NCBI GenBank assembly: GCA_005222975.1 | Contig: NJBI01000001.1 | Span: forward strand, 1-64,000 | Direction: 5' to 3' | DNA: 64,000 nucleotides | Origin: Promethearchaeota archaeon Loki_b31 | GTDB lineage: Archaea; Asgardarchaeota; Lokiarchaeia; Sigyniarchaeales; SOKP01 | Part shown: one piece after another, positions 1-19,456 of the stretch | Layout: the number at the start of each line of letters is the position of its first letter | Position numbering within the stretch: the stretch's first letter is position 1 | Notes under the pieces: generated by a model | What the model was told of the DNA's origin: nothing | Databases searched by the model: none | Seen by the model: only the letters and a program-made list of their open reading frames with translations | Made by a program: the position numbers and the translations under genes

Positions 1-239
1 TAAGTGAGTGATTTTTATGATATTTTTTGTCTATTAAAAAGGAAGTGATATCCAGATATGTATCTTCATTTGAAGAACTTTTAATAAATTATACTTAATA
101 TACCGAATTAAGTGAATTATGTACTAGTTATAAAACTTATGAAATATAATCAGATTTTTCTCAAAATTGAGCGCTTTGTTGAGGGTAAGGAACGCAACTT
201 ACCTTAATCCTTAAAACTTGTAACATTATCTTGCAGAAT

Positions 240-770
240 TTACTTTTCCTTCCAAACCGTTCCGCAACCGCTACACGTATATTTCTTTCCGTAAATTTTA
301 GGATAATCGCAAATAATATCTGTCCGATCGATTGTTTCACGGATTTTGTACCAGTTTTCGTTGTCGCATATTGGACATAATCTGCGCCCCTCTGGTTTTG
401 GAATAACTAGCATTTCTCCTGTGCGACAGAAAAGCCCTTCACTTTTAATTGAGTTAATTAAGTTTTTTTTCTGGATAAAACTTTTTACAACGGGTTCAAT
501 CACATTTGTCTTTGAATCAGATTCACCAGAATTTTGAGATATTTCAATTATTGGTGCGCTATCTTCGATCATTTTAATATAACTTGAAACAATAGGGTTA
601 ATTTCACTCCTTTTTGGTAATCGTTCGTATTCGTCAAAAAAATTGTCGATAAAACTCTCTACATAAATCTTTTCGATATTCAATCCTTTTTGATTAACTT
701 CTCTAACAATGTCCTCAATAATATATTCTTTTAAGACCGGATCTTCTAAAAGCATGTAGTAAAGCCTCAA
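240..770 (-). CDS. Hypothetical protein with C-terminal C4 zinc-ribbon domain
   Basis: CPIC...CSGC plus a DYPKIYGKKY motif. The C-terminal 56 aa match the stand-alone ORF 49198..49386 at 32/56 positions. TTG start at 770 or ATG at 755. Confidence 0.75.
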   Translation of the reverse strand: MRLYYMLLEDPVLKEYIIEDIVREVNQKGLNIEKIYVESFIDNFFDEYERLPKRSEINPIVSSYIKMIEDSAPIIEISQNSGESDSKTNVIEPVVKSFIQKKNLINSIKSEGLFCRTGEMLVIPKPEGRRLCPICDNENWYKIRETIDRTDIICDYPKIYGKKYTCSGCGTVWKEK

Positions 771-850
771 CCTTATGAGTTTTTAAGATGTTTTATGTTT
801 TAATTAGTTTAATACAAATATTTTAAGATGCTATTCTATAAAATACTATC

Positions 851-868
851 TCTAGAATTATTTCTAGA
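851..868. promoter_or_regulatory. Inverted repeat TCTAGAA-N4-TTCTAGA in divergent intergenic region
   Basis: Perfect 7-bp arms between divergently transcribed genes; role as operator is inferred. Confidence 0.3.
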
Positions 869-993
869 TAAAAAAGATCAAAAAGCATACATAATAACTC
901 GATTCGATATTTTGAAACTCATATAAGCATAAGAAGAAAATATATATTAACATCTTTATTTATTTAGACAAGAGAAAGGAGATTTTTAAAAAG

Positions 994-1653
994 ATGGATA
1001 CGAATAATTTGAAGAACTCAAAAGAAAAAGAAAAAAAACCCATATCTCACAAAAAAATAATTATTGCTGTTGTAATGATATGTATTGCGTTCTTCGGCTC
1101 CTTTTTAGCCTATTTTGTTTTACAAGTTGCTCTTAATACTGAAGCTCCTATAGTTATCGTAGTTTCTGGTTCTATGGAGCCCAGTATTCGCGAAGGAGAC
1201 TTATTATTCGTAATGGGTACTAATCCTGAATATATAAAAATTGGTACAGCTGAAGATAAAAATGGAGATGTTATAGTATTTGACGCTCGCGGATTATGGG
1301 CTGGTGCTCCTGAAGAACCTATTGTTCATCGTGTCGTTGATAAGTATTTAGAAGGGGATACATGGTATTTCAGGACAAAAGGGGACGCTAACTCACTACC
1401 TGATCAAATACCTGTCCCAGAGTCTCGAATAATAGGGGTAGTAATAGGGGGGATACCATATATTGGATGGGTAAAGATTGTTTTAACAGAGTATGGGTTA
1501 TTAATTCCTTTACTAGTCATAATATCAGCGTTCCTCGTAATAAGCATAATTCGGGATATTTTTCAAGGTGACGATGAAGATCGAAAGAAAAATAATGATA
1601 AAAACCAAGAAGATTTTGAGAAGCAACCCCCTAAAACAAATAAAATTAATTAA
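994..1653 (+). CDS. sec11: Signal peptidase I, archaeal/ER type (S26B)
   Basis: N-terminal TM, VVSGSMEP (catalytic Ser), GDLLFV, IVHRV (catalytic His), TKGDAN, IPYIGW. Confidence 0.95.
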   Translation: MDTNNLKNSKEKEKKPISHKKIIIAVVMICIAFFGSFLAYFVLQVALNTEAPIVIVVSGSMEPSIREGDLLFVMGTNPEYIKIGTAEDKNGDVIVFDARGLWAGAPEEPIVHRVVDKYLEGDTWYFRTKGDANSLPDQIPVPESRIIGVVIGGIPYIGWVKIVLTEYGLLIPLLVIISAFLVISIIRDIFQGDDEDRKKNNDKNQEDFEKQPPKTNKIN

Positions 1654-1763
1654 ATTAAATCAAATCAAATATTATTTTTAATTTATGTATGTTAAACTTT
1701 TATATATCAATAATTAATAAATATTAATTACACAATTTGTTTTAATAAATTAGGTGATAATAA

Positions 1764-1988
1764 ATGGCTTGGACACCACCAACAAAATGGACTGTAATTT
1801 TCTCATTTCTCGTATTAGCAGGAGGATTGTTTGTATTAAGTGAATTATTATTAGAATATACCAATGTACTGCCTACTTTGGCTCTTGGAACATTCAGCTC
1901 CGCAGAAGTATGGGGTATGATTGGGATGGGACTAGTTTTTCTCGCATGGTTTCTAATGTTTCTTGGAGTGAGATTGAAAGGTTTATAA
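1764..1988 (+). CDS. Small 2-TM membrane protein
   Basis: 74 aa, ATG start, two hydrophobic helices, downstream T-tract. Confidence 0.75.
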   Translation: MAWTPPTKWTVIFSFLVLAGGLFVLSELLLEYTNVLPTLALGTFSSAEVWGMIGMGLVFLAWFLMFLGVRLKGL

Positions 1989-2243
1989 TTCTTCATGTTT
2001 TTTTTTATTTCTTTAAAAAAATTTTCCAAAAATTTCTTCAAAAATGTTTTAGAGAAGTAGATTGCTAAAACACCTTTAATTGCTTTGAGTATAGAATATT
2101 AAATCACATTATTAGTAAGATAATAAAATTTTTATGAAGAAAAATATTTTAAAAAATATAGTTTAAAAATCGTAATAAAAAAATTACGAGATAACAACGA
2201 TACAGTATACAAAAAATACAAAACAAAAAAGTGAAAAAATAAA

Positions 2244-2567
2244 ATGCCTGAAGAAAATACGGAAGTAAAGGAAGTAAAAAAACGAATGCCTCGAAAAGAG
2301 GAAAATAGTGTTTTTGTAGGGAGACGCCCAACTATGAATTATGTTATGGCCACTATGATGATCCTCAATAAAGGAGAAGATTGCACAGTTAAGGCCAGAG
2401 GTAGAGCTATTTCCCATGCGGTTGATGTATGTGAGATTTTAAGAAATAGATTCTTAAAAGGAACTGAATACAAAGGAATTACCCTCAGTACCGAGCAGCT
2501 CGAAGGAGAAAGTGGACAAACTAATAATGTTTCCAGCATTGAAATCGTGCTTGCTCCTCCGCAATAA
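2244..2567 (+). CDS. albA: DNA/RNA-binding protein Alba
   Basis: VFVGRRPTMNYV, VKARGRAISHAVDV, NVSSIEIVL motifs. Confidence 0.97.
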   Translation: MPEENTEVKEVKKRMPRKEENSVFVGRRPTMNYVMATMMILNKGEDCTVKARGRAISHAVDVCEILRNRFLKGTEYKGITLSTEQLEGESGQTNNVSSIEIVLAPPQ

Positions 2568-2618
2568 GTAAGGGAACTCAGTTTTACTAGAATACAATCA
2601 AAACAAATCTTTTTTTTC

Positions 2619-2681
2619 TTAATTTACCCCTCTTAGTTCAATCGTAATGTTTTGAATTGTTAATAGGATTTCATTTTTTTT
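2619..2681. repeat. 63-bp direct repeat, left copy (partner 12002..12064)
   Basis: ttaatttacccctcttagttcaatcgtaatgttttgaattgttaataggatttcatttttttt matches 12002..12064 at 61/63 positions. Confidence 0.92.
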
Positions 2682-2698
2682 ACTACTGTATAACCCTC

Positions 2699-2842
2699 TC
2701 AAATTAAAATCATTGAAAATTTGTCCCAGTTTCCTATTTCATGACTTTTAAAATGAACATCATAAGAACCCGTTGCTGTTTGAGTGAATGTCATAAGCCC
2801 CGTGGTCAATAAAATGTAACCAATACTTCCAAACGCTTCCAT
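2699..2842 (-). pseudogene. Short 47-aa ORF / possible gene remnant at left island edge
   Basis: ATG 2842 to TGA 2699 (MEAFGSIGYILLTTGLMTFTQ...). A shifted frame continues through the repeat as ...NEILLTIQNITIELRGVN*. Confidence 0.25.
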
Positions 2843-2862
2843 TAAAGCTTCTCTAGTTAATT

Positions 2863-3603
2863 CTACCCTTTGTATTTTTTTTTTCTTAATGAGAGACTTC
2901 TTTTCATTCTTTTTTTAAAATTTGGAAGAAAGCAAATTCCTATGCCGATTAAAAATATTAGTGTTATACCAGGCCCCAGACCTGCATCTGTTACCCTAGC
3001 ACCAGGATCTAACAAAAGGAAGAGAAAAATTCCAAAAAAAAGCAATACAACTGGTAGATATATTAATAATACTATTATAAATGCGATATTGACAATTTTA
3101 TTTTGAAATTCTTCAGCATCTTGTTCATAAGAGGCTAAAGACTCTGATTTTTGCAGAATTTTTTCAACATTCTGTTCAGGGGGAAATACAATTTCCTCAG
3201 TAGAGGTTGGCACTTCCGTTTTAAAAACAACATTTAATTTTGGCACTTCAGAATTAAGAGTAATTTTGTGCTTACCACTTGTGATGTTAAATTTATTCGG
3301 AACGATAATGACTAAGTTTTCCGCTGTCCGTAAATTAATATTGAGAATTTTTTCTAAATCTTGATTTTGAATTAATGAACCATCTAGTTTAACATGGAAA
3401 TCCTCCGAATATAAGTTTGTATCAAAGATTAAATCTCTATTTATTTTAATTTTACATCCGTAAATAAAGTCTCTTAACTTATATAAAAATAGCATTTTTC
3501 CAAATCGTTTACTACTCGAATTGAAATGAAATGATAGTTCAATAAATGCACCCTTAATTGTTATTGAGAAAAGATTTTTTATTAAACTACTAGGAATCCT
3601 CAA
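2863..3603 (-). CDS. Hypothetical protein, N-terminal beta-rich domain plus two C-terminal TM helices
   Basis: 246-aa ORF, TTG start, hydrophobic hairpin followed by a basic tail. Confidence 0.7.
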   Translation of the reverse strand: MRIPSSLIKNLFSITIKGAFIELSFHFNSSSKRFGKMLFLYKLRDFIYGCKIKINRDLIFDTNLYSEDFHVKLDGSLIQNQDLEKILNINLRTAENLVIIVPNKFNITSGKHKITLNSEVPKLNVVFKTEVPTSTEEIVFPPEQNVEKILQKSESLASYEQDAEEFQNKIVNIAFIIVLLIYLPVVLLFFGIFLFLLLDPGARVTDAGLGPGITLIFLIGIGICFLPNFKKRMKRSLSLRKKKYKG

Positions 3604-3774
3604 AAAAACACCTCTAGCTTTTATTATTAATTTATTTAAGTTAAATATTAATTATATAATTGAGTATAAAATTTATAAAATATATTAGACTGAATTTTTA
3701 CAATAGTATTTGAGTCTAAAATCGATATTGTGTTTGGTAAAAGGAATAAGACTATATCAATATTTTTTTAGGAT

Positions 3775-5061
3775 TTATTTACTCTCTTCTTCTGATGTCG
3801 TATCCGGCTTATCTTTCAATTCGTCATAAAGATTAAAAAAAGTCGGTAGCACCCCATATGGAGAATTCATTAATTCTTCTTTAATCATTTGGAACTTACT
3901 TTCATCCCCAATTATGTCCCTTAATTCTTTTTCTAAAGCGAAAGGAAGCTCCTTATATTTAGTCATAAGTAAAAAAGGCTCTTTCCTACTTTTAATAAGT
4001 TTACTGGGGAAATTAGAGAAGTACTTTTCAATTAAACTATAAGCAGTTGCATATTCTTTTTTATCTCTAATTGATTTTTTGAGATTTCTCTGAAATGTAA
4101 CCTCAAAATCCTTTGTAAACCCAGTTAAAGCATTCCTAAGTAATCTCGATGATTTAGAGGCAACCAAACCAACCGTGATATATTCAGATTCATTTAAAAT
4201 TAATATTCCTTCAGTTAAATCAATATTCACTAATCCACCAATTTTCATAACTTCTTCACTCATAATTTGTACAGCATTAATAAATCCTGTAAAAATTGGC
4301 TCATCTATGCCTGATTCAGACCAGTCGTGATCAAATAAAGGATATCCCTCATTATCTTTTACAACAATTCTATAAACAGTAAATGGTAAAATGTAAAGAA
4401 GTTTTGGTTCCATAAATATAGCTATACACATAATAAACACTCCTAAACTTAATGTAATGTCTGAATATAGAATAAAACTAGGATCCCAATAATAAAATAT
4501 GAAAACACCTGCTGTTATTGGTGTTGCTATTATGATACCAATAAAAAATATAAGAGCTTCCTTTCTAATCAAAAAGGGGGCGTTTAACCAAGTTTTTAAA
4601 CCCCAATAAAAAACAGGTATAAGAAGAAGGAATACTAAAAAATCCTCTAAAACTTCAAACATGCCTACTGGATTAACAGTTAAATATCCCCATTCAAATT
4701 CAAATCCAACAGCATCTGGTTGAAACGCTAAATAACAAAGTAAAACCCCCGCTCCAAATGTTAATATTAAAATAATTGAATTAATAGTTTCTTTAATCAT
4801 AAAATTAATCCCAATTATAAAGAACATTGAAGTAGGGAATAACATAATAGGATATAATCGAGCAAGAGTCGTGCTTAGGAAAAGGTTTGCTAGTAGATCG
4901 AAAACAAAATATAACACCATAAAAATCAAAGCCATTCTAATAAAAAATAGCGATCTTATTTTCTTTGTTCTGGGTTCGAAGTATGTTAGTAAGACAGCTA
5001 CAAAGATTGTTATGCTGGTAAAAATTTCGACTATTACTTCAGGTGTCCAATTTAAAACCAT
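3775..5061 (-). CDS. 7TM (HisKA_7TM-like) membrane sensor fused to cytoplasmic longin-like domain
   Basis: About seven hydrophobic helices in aa 1-225, then a longin-like pattern VYRIVVKDNEGYPLFDHDW...IFTGFINAVQIMSEEV...ITVGLVASK. Confidence 0.75.
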   Translation of the reverse strand: MVLNWTPEVIVEIFTSITIFVAVLLTYFEPRTKKIRSLFFIRMALIFMVLYFVFDLLANLFLSTTLARLYPIMLFPTSMFFIIGINFMIKETINSIILILTFGAGVLLCYLAFQPDAVGFEFEWGYLTVNPVGMFEVLEDFLVFLLLIPVFYWGLKTWLNAPFLIRKEALIFFIGIIIATPITAGVFIFYYWDPSFILYSDITLSLGVFIMCIAIFMEPKLLYILPFTVYRIVVKDNEGYPLFDHDWSESGIDEPIFTGFINAVQIMSEEVMKIGGLVNIDLTEGILILNESEYITVGLVASKSSRLLRNALTGFTKDFEVTFQRNLKKSIRDKKEYATAYSLIEKYFSNFPSKLIKSRKEPFLLMTKYKELPFALEKELRDIIGDESKFQMIKEELMNSPYGVLPTFFNLYDELKDKPDTTSEEESK

Positions 5062-5099
5062 TATTCTATACCTTTTTTATTAATATTTATTTATCTAAT

Positions 5100-5828
5100 T
5101 TAACTATTTTTGAAATATTCTAATTCACGAATATTAGAAATCTCGCTTAAAACCTCTATTACAATATCTCTCTTTTTCGGATTGAGTTTTACCTTATTAT
5201 CAGCTAATAACTCTAAAATCTGGAATTCTATTAAATTTTGAATCCGATAGTAGATAGTGCCTCTGTTTTCTCCTAACGATTTATAAATTTGAGAGCGTTC
5301 TTGAGAATCAGTTGATATTAAGTGGTTAAGAATTTTCCTATATAATTCGTCTTGTATAAGGAAATAAATTTTACCGCTTTCATCATCTATTTCAATTGGA
5401 AGAAAAATTGTGTAATTTTTTAAAGTTAGCTTTTTAATATAATTGAATTTAATGAGCATATCTAAATGCCATATCAATTCGCCTGGGCTACCTGTTATAT
5501 CACTAGAAATTCCAACTCTTTTAATAAGAGAAAAGTGGGAACCGATATTGCTTTGGATAAAATTATAGATTATTTTCCGCGTAGAATTAGACAAAACGGT
5601 TCTTCTTGTAAATCTTGACCGGTTCACTAAGATTTTATCATTGATTAAAAATTGAATGATAGCATTTAAACCCTTTCGGGGTATCTTTAAACGTTTTTTA
5701 GCACGATAATATAAGGAATCAATATTTAAAATCTTATTTTCATCTAATATTTCCTCAGCAATTTCTATCACTTGCTTTACACTTGGATGCTCTAATCCGA
5801 TAGAAATTAGGTTGACATATTGGTTCAT
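5100..5828 (-). CDS. Multi-winged-helix transcriptional regulator
   Basis: NSTRKIIYNFIQSNIGSHFSLIKR...GELIWHLDML and SQIYKSLGENRGTIYYRIQNL HTH patterns; 38 bp from the 7TM-longin gene on the same strand. Confidence 0.85.
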   Translation of the reverse strand: MNQYVNLISIGLEHPSVKQVIEIAEEILDENKILNIDSLYYRAKKRLKIPRKGLNAIIQFLINDKILVNRSRFTRRTVLSNSTRKIIYNFIQSNIGSHFSLIKRVGISSDITGSPGELIWHLDMLIKFNYIKKLTLKNYTIFLPIEIDDESGKIYFLIQDELYRKILNHLISTDSQERSQIYKSLGENRGTIYYRIQNLIEFQILELLADNKVKLNPKKRDIVIEVLSEISNIRELEYFKNS

Positions 5829-6058
5829 TTCTTTCTAAAACTATACAGTATAATTTAATAGATGTTTTTTCACGAATAGTTGATTGTCCCAAATTATAAT
5901 TCCAATGTATAAAAGGAGATATTATTATATTTAAACTTTAACAATTCTATAAAAATCCGAGGTATTTACATTTAATAACCCTAGATTTCATTTCTTTAAA
6001 TGCTCCATGCCCAATTTTATCTGGTTCTAACCACATCACATATTAGAATCGCTTATAC

Positions 6059-6162
6059 GATTGCAAAAATTCGGTCTAAATCATTTTTTAAGATAGTAAA
6101 CAGTTTTGTTTTACAAATCAAATATTTTTATGATTTGTTAAAAATTTGAATTAAAAGTGAAA
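6059..6162 (+). promoter_or_regulatory. Conserved ~100-bp promoter/operator module, copy A
   Basis: gattgcaaaaattcggtctaaatc...agttttgttttacaaatc...aaaattt...agtgaaa; homologous to 6807..6909 and 8602..8706. Confidence 0.75.
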
Positions 6163-6248
6163 TAAAAAATCAAAATTAAACTCTTGGGTACAGTTCTTTA
6201 AATTTCACTTTTCTATTAAAGAATCTAAAAAAATGTTGGTGAATAATA

Positions 6249-6635
6249 GTGGGACGAATAAAAGGGATTTTAGCCATATCGATTGGGATTTATATTTTAA
6301 TTACGTTCCTCGGTATAATATTTCAAGTTTTAAGTATTCGACCAGATATAGCAATTGCTTTCATAGTTAATTTTATAGTTTTTTGGATTTTTACATTTCT
6401 GATCCCTGGAATACTTTCAATAGCAAGATATAAAATGAGCGATAAGTCGAAGTGGTGGTATATGATTGCCCCGGTAGCTTCACTTTTAATGTTAGTCTAT
6501 ATGGTATTGATAATAAGTTTTTACGGAGATAATTTTTGGAATTATTTCGCTCAATATTTTATTTATGCCATAGGAGCATCAATACTCCTAAGTCTTATAA
6601 TCATTTGCTATGCCCATCAGGAGGGTGGTTTCTGA
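6249..6635 (+). CDS. Hypothetical 4-TM membrane protein
   Basis: 128 aa, GTG start, four hydrophobic segments. Confidence 0.7.
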   Translation: MGRIKGILAISIGIYILITFLGIIFQVLSIRPDIAIAFIVNFIVFWIFTFLIPGILSIARYKMSDKSKWWYMIAPVASLLMLVYMVLIISFYGDNFWNYFAQYFIYAIGASILLSLIIICYAHQEGGF

Positions 6636-6806
6636 ATTATTACCAAAAAAAACTCCGAACTGCTTAAAAAATTAATTTTATCTGAATCAGATTAATATAC
6701 AAATTTTTTTTTTTAATTTTCTTATTTTAAAATTAATCCAAATTGAATAATTACTCACTGCTTAGTGCAGGTTAAATGATATCATTTAACCCTAATTCAT
6801 TTATAA

Positions 6807-6909
6807 GATTGTAAAAAATCAGTCTAAATCTTTTTTTAAGTCAGTAAATAGTTTTGTTTTACAAATCTTATCTTTTTGTGATTTAATAAAAATTTTAATT
6901 TAGTGAAAA
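6807..6909 (+). promoter_or_regulatory. Conserved ~100-bp promoter/operator module, copy B
   Basis: gattgtaaaaaatcagtctaaatc...agttttgttttacaaatc...agtgaaa directly before ATG 6910; imperfect inverted repeat 6803..6816 / 6857..6871. Confidence 0.75.
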
Positions 6910-8499
6910 ATGATGAGAAAAAAAAAATTAAAAGTTTTAGTATTGATATTATTTTTGCTTTTACCAATAGAAATTATTACAAGTTCTTATACTAATAAGT
7001 TTCCTTTTTTATTAGTACAATCAGACGAAGAAATAGCAAAAACTGAAATAAAAATGTCACTGAATTCTTTTGGAATTGATTGGTTACCGGACGGGACGCC
7101 TATAAGTACGGCAAACAATAGCCAAAGGAATCCTCAAATTTGTAGCGATGGAGCTGGGGGTGCGATCATCACGTGGCAGGACTATAGAAGCGGATCGAAT
7201 TACGATATTTACGCGCAGAGAATTGATTCCTCCGGAAACTTACAGTGGACCGCTGATGGTGTAGTTATATGTACAGCAAGTGATAGCCAATATAGACCTG
7301 AAATATGTAGCGACGGAGCTGGGGGTGCGATCATCACATGGTACGACTATAGAAGCGGATTATACTCAGACATTTACGCGCAGAGAGTTAATCACTTAGG
7401 TAATATACAATGGACTATAAATGGCACAGCTATCTGCACAGCAGGCGAATCCCAATTAGAGTCTCAATTATGCAGTAATGGGGCAGGTGGTGCAATCATT
7501 ACTTGGATTGACTATAGAAGTGGATCTAATTACGATATTTATGTTCAAGAAGTTAGTTCTTCCGGAGGTATCGAGTGGAATATCAATGGTACAGCTATAT
7601 GCACAGTAAATAATGACCAAATTAATCCTCAGATATTTAGCGATGGATCGGGAGGTGCGATCATTACCTGGAAGGGTGCGGGTATTTACGCACAGAGAAT
7701 TGATTCCTCCGGAAATTTAAAGTGGACTGTAAATGGCACAGCTATCTGCACAGCAAATGGTGACAAAAGAATTCCTCAATTATGCAGTAATGGGGCAGGT
7801 GGTGCAATCATTACTTGGTTTGACTATAGAAGTGGATCTAATTACGATATTTATGTTCAAGAAGTTAGTTCTTCCGGAGGTATCGAGTGGAATATCAATG
7901 GTACAGCCATATGTACAGCAAATGGTGACCAATATGCTCCTCAATTATGTAGCGATGGATCGGGAGGTGCAATAATTACATGGTACGATGGTAGAAGTGG
8001 ATCCACTGGTCGTAATATTTACTCTCAGTCTATAAATTCCTCTGGAAATATACAGTGGACTAACAATGGCGTAGCTATATGTACTGCCAATAATGACCAA
8101 TGGGTCCCTCAATTGTGTAGCGATGGATCGGGGGGTGCGATAATTTCATGGTACGATAATAGAAATATCGATATAACAGGTCGAGATATTTATGTTCAGC
8201 TTATTAATTCCGCAGGAAATGTCTTGTGGATATCCAACGGTTTAGCTATATGCACAGTAAATAATGACCAAATTAATCCTCAGATATGCAGCGATGGAGC
8301 AGGAGGTGCGATAATTACATGGAACGATGGTAGAAGTGAAAACGACGATATTTATGCGCAACATATAAAATCGCCAGAATTAGAAGGTGGGGAGATTCCC
8401 TTTGTGATCATTGTTGCTATCGTTTCCTTCATTGGAATTGCAGTACTTATTGGCATAGCAACAACTTTAATAATTAAGAAACGCCGTAAAATTGAATAA
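6910..8499 (+). CDS. Cell-surface protein with ~59-aa beta-propeller-type repeats and C-terminal TM anchor
   Basis: Signal-peptide-like N-terminus; 7-8 repeats W..NGxAICTA..xQ..PQ(I/L)CSDGxGGAIITWxDxR...DIYxQ; anchor ends TLIIKKRRKIE. Confidence 0.88.
   Translation: MMRKKKLKVLVLILFLLLPIEIITSSYTNKFPFLLVQSDEEIAKTEIKMSLNSFGIDWLPDGTPISTANNSQRNPQICSDGAGGAIITWQDYRSGSNYDIYAQRIDSSGNLQWTADGVVICTASDSQYRPEICSDGAGGAIITWYDYRSGLYSDIYAQRVNHLGNIQWTINGTAICTAGESQLESQLCSNGAGGAIITWIDYRSGSNYDIYVQEVSSSGGIEWNINGTAICTVNNDQINPQIFSDGSGGAIITWKGAGIYAQRIDSSGNLKWTVNGTAICTANGDKRIPQLCSNGAGGAIITWFDYRSGSNYDIYVQEVSSSGGIEWNINGTAICTANGDQYAPQLCSDGSGGAIITWYDGRSGSTGRNIYSQSINSSGNIQWTNNGVAICTANNDQWVPQLCSDGSGGAIISWYDNRNIDITGRDIYVQLINSAGNVLWISNGLAICTVNNDQINPQICSDGAGGAIITWNDGRSENDDIYAQHIKSPELEGGEIPFVIIVAIVSFIGIAVLIGIATTLIIKKRRKIE
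7463..7907 (+). repeat. Near-identical intragenic duplication (7463..7595 vs 7775..7907)
   Basis: 133 bp with one mismatch (Ile/Phe codon). Another 44-bp exact match occurs at about 7593..7636 vs 8244..8287. Confidence 0.85.
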
Positions 8500-8601
8500 A
8501 AACTAAATTCATCTTTTCTTTTTTCTTAATTTCTAATTATCGAAGCATCAAAAGTTAACAAACCTATTCATTAAATCGATATAAAAATGATAATTTAATG
8601 T

Positions 8602-8706
8602 GATTGTAAAAATTCAGTCTAAATTATTTTATAAGTCAACAAGCAGTTATATTCTGCAAATCTTAATTTTTAATTTAATAAAAATTTTAAAAAAAAGTGA
8701 AATTCA
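8602..8706 (+). promoter_or_regulatory. Conserved ~100-bp promoter/operator module, copy C
   Basis: gattgtaaaaattcagtctaaatt...agttatattctgcaaatc...atttaataaaaattttaa...agtgaaa directly before ATG 8707. Confidence 0.72.
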
Positions 8707-11700
8707 ATGAAAATTAAAACAAAAAAAGGAATATTATACTTAGGAGTTGCTTTTCTACTATGCCTTAACAGCATTTTTCCTTATATTCTCATTGAAAATA
8801 TCGTACTCGAAACGGATATTCAAGAAAAAAATCTACCAAGGCTTAGCAGTCAATATATTAATATAATTACTCCAGAAAATAAAACTTACATAGGAGGGAT
8901 GCAAGGTTATTATCCTGCAACATATGGCTTTGAGAATGAGACACTAGGGTCAGATCCAATTGAATGGTTAAGTATTCGTAGTGGAGGTACCGTTCGTATA
9001 GTTGAAGAAGTAGGAACCCATAAGAATGTTGCAAAAATACGGGATATAGATAATTCTGGCTATGTTTCTTTTCTCAATCAATTTGATTCCAATAAAGTAT
9101 CAGGAACAGTCGAATTCTGGGTAAGTACAAATGATACATCTAAAGCATTTTATATGAGGATCTTAGCATCCATTTCAGAAAGAGCCGTGATGATGAGAAT
9201 CGAAAATAATTATATTTATTGTCAAGATTCTACTACTTGGAGGGTCGTAAAATCAATTTCAAATAATAAATGGTACCATTTCAGTATTGAATTTGATTGC
9301 TCAACTGATACTTACAATTGTTGGATTGATGGGAATCTAGAAGCAGCAGATTATGGATTTAGAGACAGTGATATTAGTTCAGTTAGTAAGATACAGTTAT
9401 ATACCACCAATATTGAGGTAGATTATGAGATATATGTTGATGCTGTAGGATATTCTTGGGATATTAATTACAATATTGGAGATAATTTTTATGAAGGACT
9501 ATTGCTTAGTTTCACTAATAATACCAAGCTCGATTGGGTAGGTTATTCATTAGATGGTCAATCAACTAAAACTATTTATGGAAATACATCAATTCCAACA
9601 CCTAATGATGGATTACATAGTATTCAATTGTTTGGAAATGACTCATTGGGAACGGGATATCATTCAGATAAAAGATGGTTCAAAGTTGAAGCATTTTCAA
9701 ATAATTATATAGAAGACTTTACTACTACGACGTATATGGATGATCTTGCTACTAATTCTTCAGGATGGGGGTCTGGAGCCCTGAATTTACCGAACAAAAA
9801 TTTAACTGTTAATGTTTTTGAAGCGCCAAGTAATTGGAGATCAAGCAAAGTTCAGATGTCTGGAGATATAGTATACTCTGCTAATTATTATAGATTTGAA
9901 ATCCATGATATTAGTAATCCGAGCGAACCAATTCTACTTTCAGCGTATTCAGATGGTTGTTATGACTTCGTTATATCTGGAAACTATGCATACATAGCAG
10001 CTTATCGTCATGGATTAATAATATTGGATATTTCAGATAAAAGCAATCCTAGTCTTTTAGGCTCGTGTGATAACTATCAGACTCATTCGAGTATTACTGA
10101 TTTATATGCAACGACTATTGAGATTAAGGGGGCATATGCTTACATTTGGGATATGATACATGAATTAATAGTAATCAATATTGCTGATCCTAGTAACCCC
10201 TTTAAAGCCGGAGATTGGCTTGAGAGTGGTGGATTTTATGGGGAAAAAATGATAATTAAAGACAATTACCTTTATTTATTAACTGGAAATGTAATAATTT
10301 TTGATATAAGCAGCCCTACGAGCCCATCAGATGTGTATACTTATAATACAGGGACCTATTATGACACAGGAGTTATTTCTGGCAATTACTTATATTTACC
10401 TGGACAATATACTTTAGACATCTTAAATATTATTACCCCTACAGCTCCTGCTTTTGTAAGTTCCACAAGTACTGGAGTATCTGGCCCACAGAGTATCGCT
10501 TTCGATAATACTTTTGTCTATATAGGAGGTAATAGAATTGCATCACCCAATAATTACGGATTAGTTGAAATATACGATGTTTCTAATGTCGTAAATCCTC
10601 AATTTGAATATAGGTATATATCTCCGTGTGCAGATCCTTCTCATAGTTCAATGATCGATACAATTGACGTAATAAATGGATTTTCGTTTATGTATGATTA
10701 TAGAGGATATTATATCATCGCAGATTTCAATTTAATCGATCAATATGAAGCAATAGCTATTGGTCAATCGTCATCAATATATTCGGGAACATCCAATGTA
10801 TTATTGACACAACTATTACTTACAGTTTCTGAAGAATTACCCTCGGATACAGGAATTACTTATTACATTTCCGCAGATAACGGAACCCACTGGGAGCAAA
10901 TTATTCCAAATTCCGTTCATGCATTTGAATATCTAGGAAATCAACTAAAATGGAAAGCTGTATTAACAACTTCTCACTTATATAGAACGCCACAATTAAA
11001 TTCCTTAAGCATTGCATATTTACCATTATTAAATGGAACTATTTTATTATCACCATTGAATCATACCCATACAAATGATAACACTCCCTATTTTGAGTGG
11101 GAAGATATACCAGAAGCTACAGATTATATTATTCAATTGGATACCTCTACAACTTTTAATTCTGTTGATTATCGATATCAAAAGGTTAATAACAATTACT
11201 GGACAGCAAGTCCCTTTTTACAGGATAATACTTGGTATTGGAGAGTTGCTGGAATAGATTCAAAGAACGATGTAGGATTTTTCTCAGCTTATAATATACT
11301 TTATATTGATACACCTCCCGGGCAGTCAACTCTCATATCGCCAGAAAATAATAGATACATCGCTACAAGTAACCCTACATTCACATGGAGCGAAGCATAT
11401 AACGCTTTAAACTATACATTACAGCTAGATTCGTCCAATACATTTTCTTCAGGGGATCTTATAATATATAGCCAAATTCTATTAACAAGCTATTCACCAA
11501 CTTCACCTATCACTGACGGTATATGGTATTGGAGGATCCAAGCTTTCGATAATACAGGAAATAGCGGTCCTTATTCAGACGTTAATTTAATTATAATCGA
11601 TGCAACAATACCATCAATAGACCAACCAAATGATAAATCATATAAGGAAGGATCTACAGGTAATAGGATTGTCTGGAATTCTAATGATATTAATCCGGAT

Positions 11701-11979
11701 CGTTGTGAAGTAACCAGAGACGAAACAATTGTTAGGGATAACTCATGGGATGGAAATATTATCATTATTGATATAGATGAGTTATCTATTGGAACTTATA
11801 TCTATACCTGTACAGTTTACGATAAGGCAGGGAATTCAAATAGTGATATTGTGACTGTAACAGTTGAAGAAGCTGAAAATTTATTTGGACCGTTCATAAT
11901 TGCTTCCTTTATTGGTATAGTAATGGTTATTGGTATTGCAATGACTTTAATAATTAAAAAACGCCGTAAAATTGAATAA
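8707..11979 (+). CDS. Large multidomain cell-surface protein (LamG/ConA-like, LVIVD repeats, FN3/Ig-like domains, C-terminal TM anchor)
   Basis: Signal peptide; NNKWYHFSIEFD (LamG-like); ISGNYAYIA...GLIILDISDKSNP (LVIVD); two P(Y/T)FxW...YxxQLDxSxTF...WYWR units; anchor ends TLIIKKRRKIE. Confidence 0.88.
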   Translation: MKIKTKKGILYLGVAFLLCLNSIFPYILIENIVLETDIQEKNLPRLSSQYINIITPENKTYIGGMQGYYPATYGFENETLGSDPIEWLSIRSGGTVRIVEEVGTHKNVAKIRDIDNSGYVSFLNQFDSNKVSGTVEFWVSTNDTSKAFYMRILASISERAVMMRIENNYIYCQDSTTWRVVKSISNNKWYHFSIEFDCSTDTYNCWIDGNLEAADYGFRDSDISSVSKIQLYTTNIEVDYEIYVDAVGYSWDINYNIGDNFYEGLLLSFTNNTKLDWVGYSLDGQSTKTIYGNTSIPTPNDGLHSIQLFGNDSLGTGYHSDKRWFKVEAFSNNYIEDFTTTTYMDDLATNSSGWGSGALNLPNKNLTVNVFEAPSNWRSSKVQMSGDIVYSANYYRFEIHDISNPSEPILLSAYSDGCYDFVISGNYAYIAAYRHGLIILDISDKSNPSLLGSCDNYQTHSSITDLYATTIEIKGAYAYIWDMIHELIVINIADPSNPFKAGDWLESGGFYGEKMIIKDNYLYLLTGNVIIFDISSPTSPSDVYTYNTGTYYDTGVISGNYLYLPGQYTLDILNIITPTAPAFVSSTSTGVSGPQSIAFDNTFVYIGGNRIASPNNYGLVEIYDVSNVVNPQFEYRYISPCADPSHSSMIDTIDVINGFSFMYDYRGYYIIADFNLIDQYEAIAIGQSSSIYSGTSNVLLTQLLLTVSEELPSDTGITYYISADNGTHWEQIIPNSVHAFEYLGNQLKWKAVLTTSHLYRTPQLNSLSIAYLPLLNGTILLSPLNHTHTNDNTPYFEWEDIPEATDYIIQLDTSTTFNSVDYRYQKVNNNYWTASPFLQDNTWYWRVAGIDSKNDVGFFSAYNILYIDTPPGQSTLISPENNRYIATSNPTFTWSEAYNALNYTLQLDSSNTFSSGDLIIYSQILLTSYSPTSPITDGIWYWRIQAFDNTGNSGPYSDVNLIIIDATIPSIDQPNDKSYKEGSTGNRIVWNSNDINPDRCEVTRDETIVRDNSWDGNIIIIDIDELSIGTYIYTCTVYDKAGNSNSDIVTVTVEEAENLFGPFIIASFIGIVMVIGIAMTLIIKKRRKIE

Positions 11980-11989
11980 AAACAAAATT

Positions 11990-12003
11990 ATTTTTTTTTT
12001 TTT
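11990..12003 (+). terminator. Archaeal oligo-T terminator
   Basis: Run of 13 T just after the stop codon of 8707..11979. Confidence 0.6.
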
Positions 12004-12064
12004 AATTCACCCCTCTTAGTTCAATCGCAATGTTTTGAATTGTTAATAGGATTTCATTTTTTTT
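12002..12064. repeat. 63-bp direct repeat, right copy (partner 2619..2681)
   Basis: ttaattcacccctcttagttcaatcgcaatgttttgaattgttaataggatttcatttttttt; two C/T differences from the left copy. Confidence 0.92.
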
Positions 12065-12235
12065 TAAGTTCCATACTGGTTCAAATAATGTAGTATTTAG
12101 AGAATTATTTGGAAAATTATTAAGAGATGACAAAACATTTAAAAACTCAAATGGTACAATTAATATTAATAAAAAATCAATTATAATCTGATTTTTTAAT
12201 ACTTTATAAGAATTATAAGAAGAGGAAGAAAAAAA

Positions 12236-12424
12236 ATGGCTAAGGTAGAACCCCTATATGTAAAATCAAAAGTTCGAGAGTATATAAAAGCAAACGAATG
12301 TAACACAAGCTCAGGCGTGCTTGATGGAGATACCTTTAATGGCATAATAATAAAGATACTTGACAATGCCATTCGGCGTGCTAAAGCAAATGGAAGAAAA
12401 ACCGTTAAAGCACGAGATTTATAA
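12236..12424 (+). CDS. Histone-fold protein, alpha3-truncated (face-to-face/Bd0055-like) type
   Basis: 62 aa, SKVREYIK...NTS...AIRRAKANGRKTVKARDL; ends right after the RxTxxxxD motif with no full alpha3 helix. Confidence 0.88.
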   Translation: MAKVEPLYVKSKVREYIKANECNTSSGVLDGDTFNGIIIKILDNAIRRAKANGRKTVKARDL

Positions 12425-12717
12425 ACAAAATTATAATAAATTTCCACTTTTCTTTTTTTTATTATTCATTGATGTCTATGTTAATACATTTAAAAAATTA
12501 GGATTTTAACGAATATTAGATTATTTTCCATTATAATCGGAATTAGAGATTAATAAAGAATTTGGGAAGTCTCTCCCTCGAATCTTGCAGTGCTTATGAT
12601 TTCCAAAATAAAAAAATAGGTGCAACGAGAATTTTAAGTTCTACTTCCTTTGATACTAAGTATATTTAAAACCATAAGATGTGTTGAGATGGAACTAATT
12701 GTAAAAGAAGAAAATAT

Positions 12718-15700
12718 TTAAAATATTTTAGATTTGCCTAATTCATCCCATCCAATTATTATGCGATTTGGAAATTGTTCTGCGACATCATCTAAATGAG
12801 TTATTAGGATAATTTTTTTAAATAATGATTTGAGTTCAAAAATCTTTTCTACGAATCTCTGTCTTGAAGTTTCTGTATCTAAGGTACCAATATCTCCCTC
12901 ATCAATAAATAAAGTATCCGATTTTCGAAAAACCGCCCCAGTAGTATCTGGAATTTCCGCTATTCGCTCCATTATAGCAAATCTTATGGCAGCATTAATT
13001 TGAGTTTTTTCACCTCCCGAAAAGCTGGATGCCTCCCTTTCTCGTTCTCCATCAAATACATATATTTCAAACCCTATATTTTTTCCACTTAAAGATTTGA
13101 AAATAATTTGATTATATTTTCCCTCTGTAAGATCACTTAGAATTTCTGAAGCTTTGATTGAGATAGCTGGAAGTATTTTTTCTATAGCAAACTTAGCAAC
13201 TCCATTAAGATGAAATACATCCTTTCGTAAAATTGTATATTTTTCAATATTATTTTTAACTTGTTCTATTTCTTTCTGAATTTGTTTGATCTTTATTTTG
13301 AATTCTTTTATTCGATTAATTTCTTTTTTAATAAATCCGATTTCCCCTTTCAAACCTTGTAATAATTCATTTATCTCATTTAAGTCCTGTTGTTTTTTTT
13401 CAAACTTTCGTGCAACTTCTAAATATTCTTCATAAGAAGGTTTTAGTCTTTTTAGCTCTTCCTCTAATTTTTCTAATTTCTCTTTCAGGTTAAAAATATC
13501 TTTTTCGCTTTTTCTAATTAAGGGAGCATAATCCTTTATTTCTTTTAATCTTCTTTCTAACTCTTCTCTCTCTTCTTCTTGTCTTTTGAGCTCCTCTAAC
13601 TTTTTAGTAATAATTGATAATTGCTCCTCAAAATTTTCGATTAATCTTTGTTTAACGAGACTTGCATTTAATTTTTTAACTTTTTTTTCTACTTCTCCTA
13701 ATTCCTCTGTCTTTTTCTTCTCAATTTTTTTTAATTTTTCTTGTAATATTCGGTAATCTATCTTGATTTCATCTGCAATGAAAACATCTTTTGTTATTTT
13801 CTTTTGTTTAGGTCTAATTACCTGCAATTCTATTTGAGTTTTTTCTTCTGTAGCGATAAATTCTTTTATGCGTTTATCGTCCTTATATTCTTTAGCCATA
13901 GGTAGTTCAATTTTTTGCAGCCTGTAAAGTCTTTCTGTTAACATACCATCCTCTTTTAAAGTATTAAACGCTTCGTCTTTACTTATATCAACATCTAAGT
14001 CGGAAAGTCGGGATTCCCTTTTTTGAATTTGATCAATCAACATCTCTAATTGCTCATCATATTGCTTTTCTATACGATCTAGCATTTTTTGAGTACTCTC
14101 TATTTCAGATTGTATTAACTCTTTCTCATGTATTTTTTTATTAACGATCTCTTTTCGTTTTTCTAAATCTTCTTTCTCGTTTCTAATATCGTGAAATTTT
14201 TCTAACTTTTTTTGGAGATTTTCGAATTTATTTTGCTGGATTTTAGACATTTTAAGTTCTTCCTCATTCTTACCAACATCAATCTCTAACTCATCGATAG
14301 ATTTCTTAGTATTAGAGTAGTTAAAAGCTTCAATTTGCAATCTTTCCGTTTCTTCTTTTAATTTTTGCACTTCTTTTGAAATAATTGTTTTTTCTTTTTC
14401 TTGTTGCAGAACTTCTTCATTTTTTAGTTTTAAATTTTTTATATACTGAGGCAATTCTTCAATTAATACTCCTAATTCGTCAGTCTTTCCTTCAAAAAAC
14501 TTTTGATTCTCTACGAGATCCATTATTACAGTTTTTAAATTTTTCTCAACCTCTTGAAAAATCTTCAACTTAAACAATTTTATAAGCCTCTTATGTCTTT
14601 TAGAAGAGTCAAGAGATGAAAATATCTGTAATTCTTGCTGTCTTATAAAAAAGGAAGATGTGAATCCTTCGTAATCGTAACCTATAATCCCCTCTAATTT
14701 TTCCTCTTTTTCTGGAATTTTCAGACCAGTATATAATGGCTCATTCTCAAATTTTAGCTCTAGTTTAGGCGAAGTTTGCCTTCTTTTTACAACTAATAGT
14801 TGATCTCCAATTAAAAGTTCAAGATTTACGTATCCTTTATCGTATAATATTTCATCAAGAGTAAGTCCTACATCTCTACGAGAATTTCTTTTAAAAAGAG
14901 CAAATGTAATAGCATCTAATATTGAAGACTTTCCTGAACCTGTAGGACCTTTTATAACATATAAACCATCTTCAAAAACAATTTTATTTGGTCCTTTTCC
15001 GTAGTTAATAAAATTTTGCATATCAATAGATCTTATTGATAAAGAACCTTTAGTAGTTAAATCAACTAAGGAAATCTCCTTTGCAAGTAATTCTAAACCA
15101 ATACTTTTCAGTTCTCCGTAATATTTATGAGTTGAATATTTCTGCTCGAGAAAATCTTTAAATAAGCTTCTTGGATCTAAATTAACCTTCCGAAGCTTTT
15201 GAAGCTCAAGACCAATTTTTTCTTTATAGTTCAAATTAGTATAAAAAGAATCTTTAAAATACTGTTGTAGCTGATTTTTATTAATTTTTACTTCCATTCC
15301 TTTAGAACAATAAATTGCGATTTCACATATGGATTCTTTAACGCTTTCTTTTTCTGGTAGAGCTTCTAAAATAAATCGATTTAGATCTTCTGTATCATTT
15401 GGAATTTCTATATTTAGTTTTATAAGATTTCTACATTCTATTTCTCTAAATTCTAAATCGTCGTTCTCAATATCATAAACGCAGTAAAACTTTTTTGAAT
15501 CTCTTTCCCCCATATCAAGCCTATCAATTGACCCTGGAATTATAATTCGATCGTCGTTCCACATTTTTTGTTTTAAATGTACATGTCCAAAAATAACGAG
15601 ATCAAATTTATCTTTTTGAATCATTTGTTTATTAAATCGAAATTCCCCGTAAATCGTTCTAGGATTATTCGTTTCTCGAATTTTGGCCCCATCCAAATAA

Positions 15701-16320
15701 TAATGTCCAATTAGAATTCTTTTTTGACAATCTTTTAGTTTAGTCTTGCATATCTGTGCAATATAATTTTGAAAAATGTGTTGAGCAATTATGTAATTAT
15801 TCTGATTTTCAAGAATTTCTTTTTCTATAAAGCCCTCATTTTTAGCCATCTTTACTAAAACATCAAAATGGATATAGGGTAGAAAAATAATGCCAGCCTT
15901 CTTCTCATTAATTTCAATTATTAGATGTTTTAGACCTGTGTACACGTTAACATTAGAAAAGTTTGCTAATTCTTGAACATCCGCCCCTCTCTTAGGATTC
16001 CTTATAGAATCGTGATTACCGCCAATAATAATTGTTTTTATCTGGTGTTCATTTAAAGGTATGAAGATTTTTTCACGCACGATTTTTCTGATAGTAGGAG
16101 AAATCATCTGCCTTTCGTATAAATCTCCTAGAAAGATCACATAATCTGCTTTTTCTTCTATAGCTGCATTAACAATTTTTTCGCAATTGTTAATTACATC
16201 AAAATTTCTTTCTGAAATACTTAACTCATAATTTTTGCGATAAGAATACGGTTTTCCAAAATGAGTATCCCCTATGAAAAATATCTTTGTAATGATCCCT
16301 TCACCTGTTTTTATCTTCAA
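12718..16320 (-). CDS. mre11-rad50: Fused Mre11 nuclease - Rad50 ABC ATPase
   Basis: N-terminal GDTHFG, GDLYE, GGNHD, GHVH phosphoesterase motifs. From aa ~428: IRSIDMQNF, GPTGSGKS, coiled coil, FSGGE, FIDEG, ITH. One continuous frame, TTG start. Confidence 0.95.
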   Translation of the reverse strand: MKIKTGEGIITKIFFIGDTHFGKPYSYRKNYELSISERNFDVINNCEKIVNAAIEEKADYVIFLGDLYERQMISPTIRKIVREKIFIPLNEHQIKTIIIGGNHDSIRNPKRGADVQELANFSNVNVYTGLKHLIIEINEKKAGIIFLPYIHFDVLVKMAKNEGFIEKEILENQNNYIIAQHIFQNYIAQICKTKLKDCQKRILIGHYYLDGAKIRETNNPRTIYGEFRFNKQMIQKDKFDLVIFGHVHLKQKMWNDDRIIIPGSIDRLDMGERDSKKFYCVYDIENDDLEFREIECRNLIKLNIEIPNDTEDLNRFILEALPEKESVKESICEIAIYCSKGMEVKINKNQLQQYFKDSFYTNLNYKEKIGLELQKLRKVNLDPRSLFKDFLEQKYSTHKYYGELKSIGLELLAKEISLVDLTTKGSLSIRSIDMQNFINYGKGPNKIVFEDGLYVIKGPTGSGKSSILDAITFALFKRNSRRDVGLTLDEILYDKGYVNLELLIGDQLLVVKRRQTSPKLELKFENEPLYTGLKIPEKEEKLEGIIGYDYEGFTSSFFIRQQELQIFSSLDSSKRHKRLIKLFKLKIFQEVEKNLKTVIMDLVENQKFFEGKTDELGVLIEELPQYIKNLKLKNEEVLQQEKEKTIISKEVQKLKEETERLQIEAFNYSNTKKSIDELEIDVGKNEEELKMSKIQQNKFENLQKKLEKFHDIRNEKEDLEKRKEIVNKKIHEKELIQSEIESTQKMLDRIEKQYDEQLEMLIDQIQKRESRLSDLDVDISKDEAFNTLKEDGMLTERLYRLQKIELPMAKEYKDDKRIKEFIATEEKTQIELQVIRPKQKKITKDVFIADEIKIDYRILQEKLKKIEKKKTEELGEVEKKVKKLNASLVKQRLIENFEEQLSIITKKLEELKRQEEEREELERRLKEIKDYAPLIRKSEKDIFNLKEKLEKLEEELKRLKPSYEEYLEVARKFEKKQQDLNEINELLQGLKGEIGFIKKEINRIKEFKIKIKQIQKEIEQVKNNIEKYTILRKDVFHLNGVAKFAIEKILPAISIKASEILSDLTEGKYNQIIFKSLSGKNIGFEIYVFDGEREREASSFSGGEKTQINAAIRFAIMERIAEIPDTTGAVFRKSDTLFIDEGDIGTLDTETSRQRFVEKIFELKSLFKKIILITHLDDVAEQFPNRIIIGWDELGKSKIF

Positions 16321-16350
16321 TATTACTATTTTAAGGAAAAACTGAATTCA

Positions 16351-18027: not shown

Positions 18028-18069
18028 TTAATTTTGACCTTTTTATTTTTTTATATAGGAAAAATTGAA

Positions 18070-19140: not shown

Positions 19141-19456
19141 ATCTTATAATCCTTTTAATTTTTCTTTGACTAAACTTTAAAGATTTAAAGATATTCAATC
19201 TTTAAAAAATTTAATCATAGCATAAAACCATTACATTTCATTTTTAATTAATATATTAATTATTTTATCAATATAAATAAAAAATTGTATTAATCCTTGG
19301 CTAAGAGATTATTTGTTCTTTTAAAATTATTAGCCTTCACCATTTTTAAACTTCAAGGACTTTTAAAATTTAATAGTTTTTAGAATGGATGTTAAGTGGC
19401 TAATATGAAATTAATAAAAGATATTGAAAAATTTAAAATTTTATTAGATTTAATCT

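Follow-up and report, generated by a model that had tools for sequence, protein, structure and literature searches.

The stretch of DNA analysed here (the window) comprises 64,000 nucleotides, positions 1 to 64,000 of the forward strand of contig NJBI01000001.1 from Promethearchaeota archaeon Loki_b31. Near its left end the genes for two chromatin proteins, Alba and a short histone-fold protein, lie 9.7 kb apart, with the block between them at 2682-11989 (9.3 kb) forming a strain-variable, recombinase-less cassette island in the Alba/histone-fold spacer. The island is bounded by two copies of a direct repeat, R (2607-2681 and 11990-12064; 75 nt, 95% identity ungapped), and was compared across 42 species-level genomes of the genus, which holds at least that many (G000 being this genome, one of the 42), and with 14 metagenome contigs found in an exact-pattern scan with a conserved 24-mer of R. 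The features that make up the two ends of the island and its flanks are the following, with X denoting a spacer segment found at loci that carry no island (empty sites).

2244-2567, + strand: Alba gene, left flank; PF01918 at 1.2e-15; next to the histone-fold gene in 14 congeners
2594-2618, + strand: Alba terminator motif (AAAACAAA ... T8), here about 15 nt shorter than in four relatives; the genus-conserved form is CGCTAAAACAAAA..CTC-T8-CTTAATT
2607-2681, + strand: left copy of R, attL-like; a single copy is present in the empty sites G017, G039, G005, L046-L048, L054 and L055
2682-2722, + strand: X', 41 nt, conserved as the island's left end; stands in place of the 38-40-nt segment X of the empty sites
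11990-12064, + strand: right copy of R, attR-like, its leading T-run terminating the last cassette
12064-12065, no strand: X deletion point, lacking the ~40 nt of X that empty sites and the right junctions of G041, L049, L051 and L052 contain; X is also deleted in L050
12236-12424, + strand: histone-fold gene, 62 aa, DUF1931-type, right flank; Pfam below cut-off, solved DUF1931/histone-fold chains matched at 2.6e-5 to 1.3e-4

A first-pass annotation of the window had reported a 63-bp direct repeat between an alba and a histone gene, each copy following a similar motif and T-tract downstream of a + strand gene. This repeat is recovered here as the core of R (2619-2681 and 12002-12064, 61 of 63 positions identical), which in a gapped alignment extends to 92 nt at 90% identity (2590-2681 and 11974-12064). 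Each copy is indeed preceded by AAAACAAA and a T-run 3' of a + strand gene, Alba on the left (stop codon at 2567) and a 1090-aa surface protein on the right (stop codon at 11979), and both flanking gene calls hold, the "histone" being a 62-aa short histone-fold protein of DUF1931 type. BLAST of R against the 3.5-Mb, 99-contig assembly returns these two places alone, the remainder being 14-21-nt chance matches (E 0.07 or worse, the best of them 17 nt long), with R thus confined to the locus rather than being a dispersed multi-copy element. R is recognisable in five of the 42 genus genomes, solely at the Alba/histone-fold locus, and was not found in viral contigs (IMG/VR). No Rfam family matches positions 1-16000 at E values up to 1, and folding of both strands of R yields z-scores of -0.3 to -1.5 against shuffled sequences (about -1), which is no better than shuffled and indicates no meaningful structure.

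Among best matches, the Alba and histone-fold genes are spaced 334-450 bp apart on the same contig and strand in 13 genus genomes, with G039 arranged likewise, so that the empty, adjacent set comprises three close and 11 more distant species. The three closest (G017, G039, and G005) read Alba, terminator, R, X, and histone-fold gene, with one R and an X of 38-40 nt, and five metagenome contigs (L046, L047, L048, L054, and L055) are also empty with one R. Two further contigs (L045 and L057) are occupied as in the window, four (L049, L050, L051, and L056) are occupied with other cargo, and one (L044) is stacked. G041, which is about 95% identical to this genome over 20 kb, carries, on one contig, the left junction together with the island's initial 366 nt (98%), and on another the right junction, with a surface protein, a diverged R, X, and the histone-fold gene. 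The Alba/histone slot is therefore the site of an insertion polymorphism, and the empty outgroups indicate that the empty state is ancestral. The first-pass annotation had proposed that the block entered, and could be lost, by recombination at the repeat; insertion is supported by the empty sites with one R, whereas loss is something we only infer. The genes at the left of the island are 97-99% identical among occupied genomes, compared with 88-98% for the flanks and about 95% genome-wide, and a higher identity of island than of flanks has been taken elsewhere as a sign of recent island exchange (PMC4033161).

R is native spacer DNA of the lineage, situated just after the Alba terminator, rather than imported DNA. 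In the more distant congeners R is no longer recognisable, however an alignment of the spacer across the genus shows that the Alba terminator motif is retained, and as this motif forms the left edge of R, the left part of R is native host sequence. R of G005 is 87% identical to that of the other genomes, compared with about 91% genome-wide, and R thus evolves at the rate of neutral spacer. In both L050 and L044 the copy on the right starts at the stop codon of the last cassette and reproduces the whole Alba 3' region, with a full leader of TAAAACAAAATAACAAAAAACCACTC followed by T8, R, T8, and ACT, so that the original duplication was about 100 nt long. In the window both copies have lost part of this leader (75-92 nt are left), and the right junction has also lost X. 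An nhmmer profile built from about 20 R copies detects no decayed copies between the cassettes, and pairwise comparison of R with the region 3' of the 128-aa gene is not above shuffles.

The 3' ends of other genes here show some related detail. A terminator-like motif, ACAAAT/ATC - T-run - (C)TTAATTT, ends four + strand genes of the window (2598-2625, 6686-6708, 8510-8532, and 11985-12007), with the 14-mer TTTTTTCTTAATTT of this motif occurring 10 times in the genome. The Alba 3' untranslated region at 2561-2606 is divergent, being 59-67% identical to that of eight relatives, which are 77-100% identical among themselves, and the hairpin AGAGAAA...TTTCTCT, which throughout the genus comes after the stop codon of Alba, is absent from it.

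As a fallback, the first-pass annotation had read the repeat as a duplicated gene tail. Under this reading, or under that of a split integrase of SSV type, R would be a second copy of the 3' end of a protein gene on the minus strand. The reading draws on a frame ending ...NEILLTIQNI(T/A)IELRGVN and a stop codon, which is open in both copies here and at the left copy continues upstream into a 39-aa open stretch. Comparison of copies does not bear it out. G041 has a stop within R in this frame, the T-run is 8 or 9 nt long across copies, with the ninth T shifting the frame in L044 and in the window's right copy, and the frame of this genome is also cut by a 1-nt deletion (2734) that is not present in six other copies. 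The upstream part carries an N-terminal stop in G041, L044, and L049, and is missing from L056, whilst in the empty sites the frame amounts to only about 24 codons. Of the substitutions that distinguish G005 from the others in R, seven are non-synonymous and one is synonymous in this frame, and the frame has no family match. Since it is broken differently in different copies, R does not behave as the tail of a gene, and we consider this origin very improbable. The deletion at 2734 (CCTATTTC here, CCTTATTTC in the six other copies) lies in a 181-nt island end that is otherwise 97-100% conserved, and may be either a real mutation or an assembly error.

Between the two copies of R, the island carries the following features.

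2619-2914, - strand: "orfS", a degenerate small open frame running into R, frameshifted or stopped in several copies; no conserved gene
2863-3603, - strand: p246, 246-aa membrane protein, no family match
3673-3709, inverted: inverted partial promoter module, upstream of the 246-aa gene
3775-5061, - strand: p428, 428-aa multi-pass membrane protein, putative sensor
5100-5828, - strand: 242-aa winged-helix regulator (wHTH); PF24266 at 8.6e-5, below the curated cut-off
6053-6162, + strand: promoter module copy 1, upstream of the 128-aa gene; repeat families D4/D6
6249-6635, + strand: p128, 128-aa membrane protein cassette, absent from L050
6795-6912, + strand: promoter module copy 2
6910-8499, + strand: p529, cassette for a 529-aa repeat surface protein, anchored in the membrane by its C terminus; variants at 54-73% aa identity in G041 and L050
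8602-8690, + strand: promoter module copy 3; D4, I3, I4
8707-11979, + strand: p1090, 1090-aa LVIVD/Ig-like surface protein cassette; PF08309 at 3.7e-24; PF19077; anchor tail (11899-11979, 82% identical to 8419-8499) in repeat family D7

The right half of the island thus holds three cassettes (128 aa, 529 aa, and 1090 aa), each with a promoter module, which within this genome is confined to the island, and an anchor tail common to both surface proteins (8419-8523 and 11899-12003, 82% identical). At least five different cargo sets, mostly surface proteins, occupy the slot in closely related strains, and the earlier description of the block as a surface-variation hotspot therefore stands. In L049 the same left half is followed by one promoter module and a 692-aa beta-helix surface protein. 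L050 lacks the 128-aa and 1090-aa cassettes and encodes one protein that joins the repeat domain to a LamG-like domain, a fusion also present in G041, and in L051 an anchor stub alone follows the regulator, succeeded by a full R and X. The part that L056 has in common with the others is R and the 41-nt X' alone. Its cargo beyond X' encodes three proteins, of 301 aa (a membrane protein), 111 aa, and at least 587 aa, the last being a surface protein whose repeats look FG-GAP-like by eye.

This variation suggests a second layer of exchange within the island, in which recombination between promoter modules and between anchor tails would add, delete, or swap cassettes. L050 retains a single promoter module and a single anchor module, with its joins located exactly in those modules, which fits cassette gain or loss between them. 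L050 also has the same loss of X as this genome, a loss otherwise private to the latter, yet lacks two of its cassettes. No recombinase was found in any cargo variant by Pfam and PHROGs scans of the island genes and the L056 cargo or in the open reading frame lists of L049 and L056, which contain membrane, regulator, and surface proteins alone, and domain scans bear out the first-pass statement that none lies between the repeats; nor, as also stated there, is there a tRNA gene nearby (none in 1-22000), with R being intergenic.

The composition of the island matches that of the genome (G+C 31.5%), except in the repeat-protein gene, and the sensor-regulator pair (p428 and wHTH) has three paralogous pairs elsewhere in this genome (C14:35421-37423, C6:3533-5535, and C78:48230-50237), with 42-58% aa identity for the membrane protein and 46-53% for the winged-helix regulator. 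Taken together, the composition and the paralogues point to an origin of the island within the lineage. Long direct repeats were not found around the three paralogous loci, indicating that the repeat-bounded state is particular to the Alba/histone slot. In several genomes the C14-type pair lies ~20 kb from a paralogous histone-fold gene on the same contig.

The loci compared here yield four junction types: Alba-R-X in empty sites, Alba-R-X' at left ends (G000, G041, L045, L049, L056, and L057), cargo-T-run-R-X at right ends (continuing into the histone-fold gene in L051, L049, and G041), and cargo-R-X' in L044. X' is common to G000, G041, L045, L049, L057, L044, and also L056, whose other cargo is unrelated. 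Comparison of the left junction with X reveals no significant similarity beyond R and about 10 nt, the remainder being not above shuffles.

These junctions fit the Campbell pattern and lead to the reading that we favour, with moderate confidence, for the locus as a whole, namely that of a recombinase-less, strain-variable island for which R is the site of whole-island gain, stacking, and loss by host homologous recombination. The island is bracketed by a direct duplication of host DNA reaching from the Alba terminator to the end of R, an extent by which Alba keeps its terminator, the last cassette gains one, and the histone gene keeps its upstream region. Whole islands would be gained, stacked, and lost when the R of the chromosome recombines, in Campbell fashion, with a copy carried by incoming or excised DNA, passing through a circular intermediate, with the host homologous recombination machinery most likely carrying out the exchange. 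This machinery is favoured by the lack of a recombinase in the cargo, the presence of one tyrosine recombinase gene (PF00589) in the 92%-complete genome, the lack of any other R-bearing element in this genome, its congeners, or IMG/VR, the neutral-like evolution of R, and a shared sequence long enough for homologous recombination.

Signs of recombination are seen within R itself. R of L056 carries both single-nucleotide polymorphisms (SNPs) otherwise exclusive to the G039 lineage, the last of them at 2656, followed by X' and then by unrelated cargo, so that at least one event had its crossover within the final 28 nt of R. In L044 a unit ending in an anchor tail is followed head-to-tail by R, X', and a second unit, and the unit copies differ at 27 positions of their left 323 nt (8%). 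A circular molecule or a circular-assembly overlap was considered for L044 and rejected, as an overlap would not leave terminal copies that differ by 8%; barring a chimeric contig, L044 would then hold two different units in a stack. In G041 both copies of R have an A at 2654 that no other genome has, which suggests interaction or conversion between them.

The same observations bear on the possibility that R is a passive scar of the first insertion, with islands spreading by double crossovers in the conserved flanking genes, as do replacement flexible genomic islands. Such a route explains the mosaic of island and flank identities, and it is favoured by the neighbouring Mre11-Rad50 slot, which is replaced wholesale among the same genomes without repeats, and crossover in the flanks is a documented mechanism for surface-related islands (PMC4033161; PMC4535781). 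Crossovers in the flanks, however, cannot make the unit-R-unit stacking of L044, and a scar does not explain the recipient-type SNPs that L056 retains in R up to the junction. The private A at 2654 in both copies of G041, a hint of interaction between these, also speaks against it. We therefore regard a passive scar as rather improbable.

The main alternative concerns the enzyme, with R as the true attachment site of a site-specific recombinase that the island has lost or never encoded, and the island as a decayed integrative element akin to the cis-mobilizable elements (CIMEs) of bacteria, still movable in cis or in trans by the integrase of a related element. The anatomy resembles attL, attR, attB, and attP with a conserved end, X', tandem stacking is a hallmark of accretion at att sites (PMC5704250), and R contains an imperfect 8-8-8 palindrome (AGTTCAAT-CGTAATGT-TTTGAATT), with the right copies diverging mainly to its left. 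In DNA this rich in A+T, however, such a palindrome is at chance level (fold z about -1), and R evolves like neutral spacer (the 87% of G005 against about 91% genome-wide). None of the five cargo variants contains an integrase, the 92%-complete genome has the one tyrosine recombinase gene alone, and searches of this genome, the 41 congeners, and IMG/VR revealed no second element bearing R. Nor did these, or the 14 metagenome contigs, yield one that combines R with an integrase, all of them being incomplete collections. An attachment site is, in our estimation, possible but unlikely.

The single Xer-like tyrosine recombinase gene, the direct repeats at the bounds, and the lack of a recombinase in the island would also suit an integrative mobile element exploiting Xer (IMEX), integrated by the host Xer protein at a chromosomal dif site within R. 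The core of dif has a consensus resembling ATAA-N6-TTAT, and no such core is seen in R by eye. Moreover, R occurs in five closely related species alone (5 of 42), with the spacers of the other congeners lacking it, whereas dif would be expected genus-wide, making this explanation hardly credible. Two further classes of element were considered and rejected: a transposon, insertion sequence, or casposon, as the repeats are direct and of 75-100 nt rather than terminal inverted repeats and the island contains no transposase or Cas1, and an integrative element with its own recombinase (SSV-type, pTN3-type, prophage, or integrative and conjugative or mobilizable element), as there is neither an integrase nor a tRNA or gene 3'-end target.

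Several points weigh against recombination at R by the host machinery as the explanation of the locus. The circular intermediate and the enzyme, like loss through R, are steps that we infer. The origin of the first ~100-nt duplication is explained neither by this model nor by its rivals. The apparent assignment of R in L056 to the G039 lineage rests on two SNPs in 95 nt, and L044 and the other metagenome contigs could be chimeras of co-occurring strains. G000, G041, and G017 form an unresolved trichotomy in five-taxon trees of 8 kb of nearby core and 2.3 kb of flank (29, 21, and 20 informative sites), such that one gain, a gain and a loss, or lateral exchange are all possible and cannot be told apart. 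The paralogous sensor-regulator loci have no long repeats, and bounding by repeats is thus no general property of the module. Finally, the right R copies differ from the consensus mainly in their left half. Site-specific recombination, with its fixed point of crossover, could produce such a pattern, but this half is also the faster-evolving one in empty sites, which makes the argument weak.

Compared with described systems, the island is closest in kind to the additive and replacement flexible genomic islands (PMC4033161; PMC4535781) and to bacterial CIMEs (PMC5704250). Like the flexible islands of aquatic prokaryotes, including the cell-wall island of Haloquadratum walsbyi, it occupies a fixed slot with strain-variable sets of surface-protein genes, with an identity above that of the flanks and without the hallmarks of a self-mobile element, and its presence or absence and variable cassette number at one locus among close strains are those of an additive flexible island. 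It differs from those islands in its sharp ends, in the ~100 nt of target DNA that are directly duplicated, and in the 41-nt end that is conserved; it can also be wholly absent or stacked, and it carries as cargo a self-contained regulon with modular promoter and anchor parts.

The CIMEs and their tandem accretion are known from streptococci (Pavlovic 2004; Bellanger 2011; both reviewed in PMC5704250). The present island shares with them the flanking attL- and attR-like repeats, of which an empty site has one, the absence of integration genes, and tandem arrays joined through the repeat (here L044, a single metagenome contig and possible chimera). In contrast to CIMEs, which descend from integrative and conjugative or mobilizable elements, occupy the 3' end of a gene, and rely for movement on the known integrase of an incoming element, it has no known parent element, integrase, or conjugation gene, and its repeat is intergenic. 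The aloposons of Asgard archaea and the elements HeimV and HeimM (PMC8813620), as well as the integrative mobile genetic elements of Atabeyarchaeia such as Yucahu-i (PMC11529989), are likewise strain-variable chromosomal insertions. These elements are equipped with tyrosine integrases, with genes for partition and replication, or with both; they insert at tRNA genes or at an 11-bp motif, and in several cases coexist as circles. The island has none of these features. Integron cassettes are similar in being exchangeable units in one orientation, each ending in a recombination-prone 3' module, however the island has neither an integrase nor a folded site like attC (fold z about -1), and R is found at its outer ends only, with the inner cassettes bounded by promoter and anchor homology. 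The island accordingly represents no new principle. Strain-variable surface islands are already well known in other prokaryotes, and this one is a clear instance from a group that has been little studied. That R and the 41-nt X' instead make up an undescribed archaeal platform for mobile cassettes, in which a trans-acting or non-canonical system inserts, stacks, and exchanges surface-protein regulons between two Asgard chromatin-protein genes without an element-encoded recombinase, is a proposal to which we give little credence.

The JGI, ENA, and Logan assemblies contain 20 clusters of p246 relatives (53-95% identity), and scanning of the 246-aa protein against the genome contigs returns G041 (JAUWZT01) alone. 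Two of these relatives, P0001 (95%) and P0004 (77%), each list one 18,007-nt JGI contig, possibly the identical one, and if common to both this contig would be a second stacked island. A further contig of G041 (C38) encodes homologues of the sensor and regulator, at 75% and 54% aa identity respectively, and is not joined to the island contigs of that genome.

The surroundings of the two chromatin genes are also variable. To the right of the histone-fold gene, 12600-19200 encodes a single-chain Mre11-Rad50, HerA, and other proteins, with no nucleotide homology in G039, G017, G041, or L049, which hold in the same slot an operon of similar length encoding a split Mre11 and a 697-aa Rad50-like protein (compared: L042, L040, L049:1504-7927, and L021:240-2333). 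In G005 the homology on the histone side ends about where the homology to 19439 onward begins, with no cassette in that slot. With variable slots on both sides, two independently variable slots flank the histone-fold gene. To the left, G017 has a ~1.9-kb insertion (L021:3532-5404, corresponding to window positions 2014-2034) between an uncharacterised 74-aa membrane-protein open reading frame (1764-1988) and Alba, which contains one 571-aa open reading frame with a Cys-rich N-terminal region and a QYCQFHFLRN motif reminiscent of IS256/Mutator-type transposases, with no Pfam match. G039, G005, and L053 have a ~600-nt tandem duplication upstream of Alba (window 1472-2088; L042:10182-13388 and L022), which takes in the 74-aa open reading frame (1764-1988) and the terminal part of the signal peptidase gene, with copies roughly 80% alike.

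To our knowledge, little is known of cell-surface variation or DNA exchange in Asgard archaea, and the Asgard mobile elements described so far that we know of all carry integrases. The Alba/histone slot is useful in this respect, as its sharp ends, empty and occupied states, several versions of the cargo at about 95% identity, and ~100-nt recombination sequence make gain, loss, and exchange directly testable in metagenome reads or cultured relatives. The slot is also a tolerated site of insertion that leaves both chromatin genes intact, and could serve as a landing site once genetics exists.

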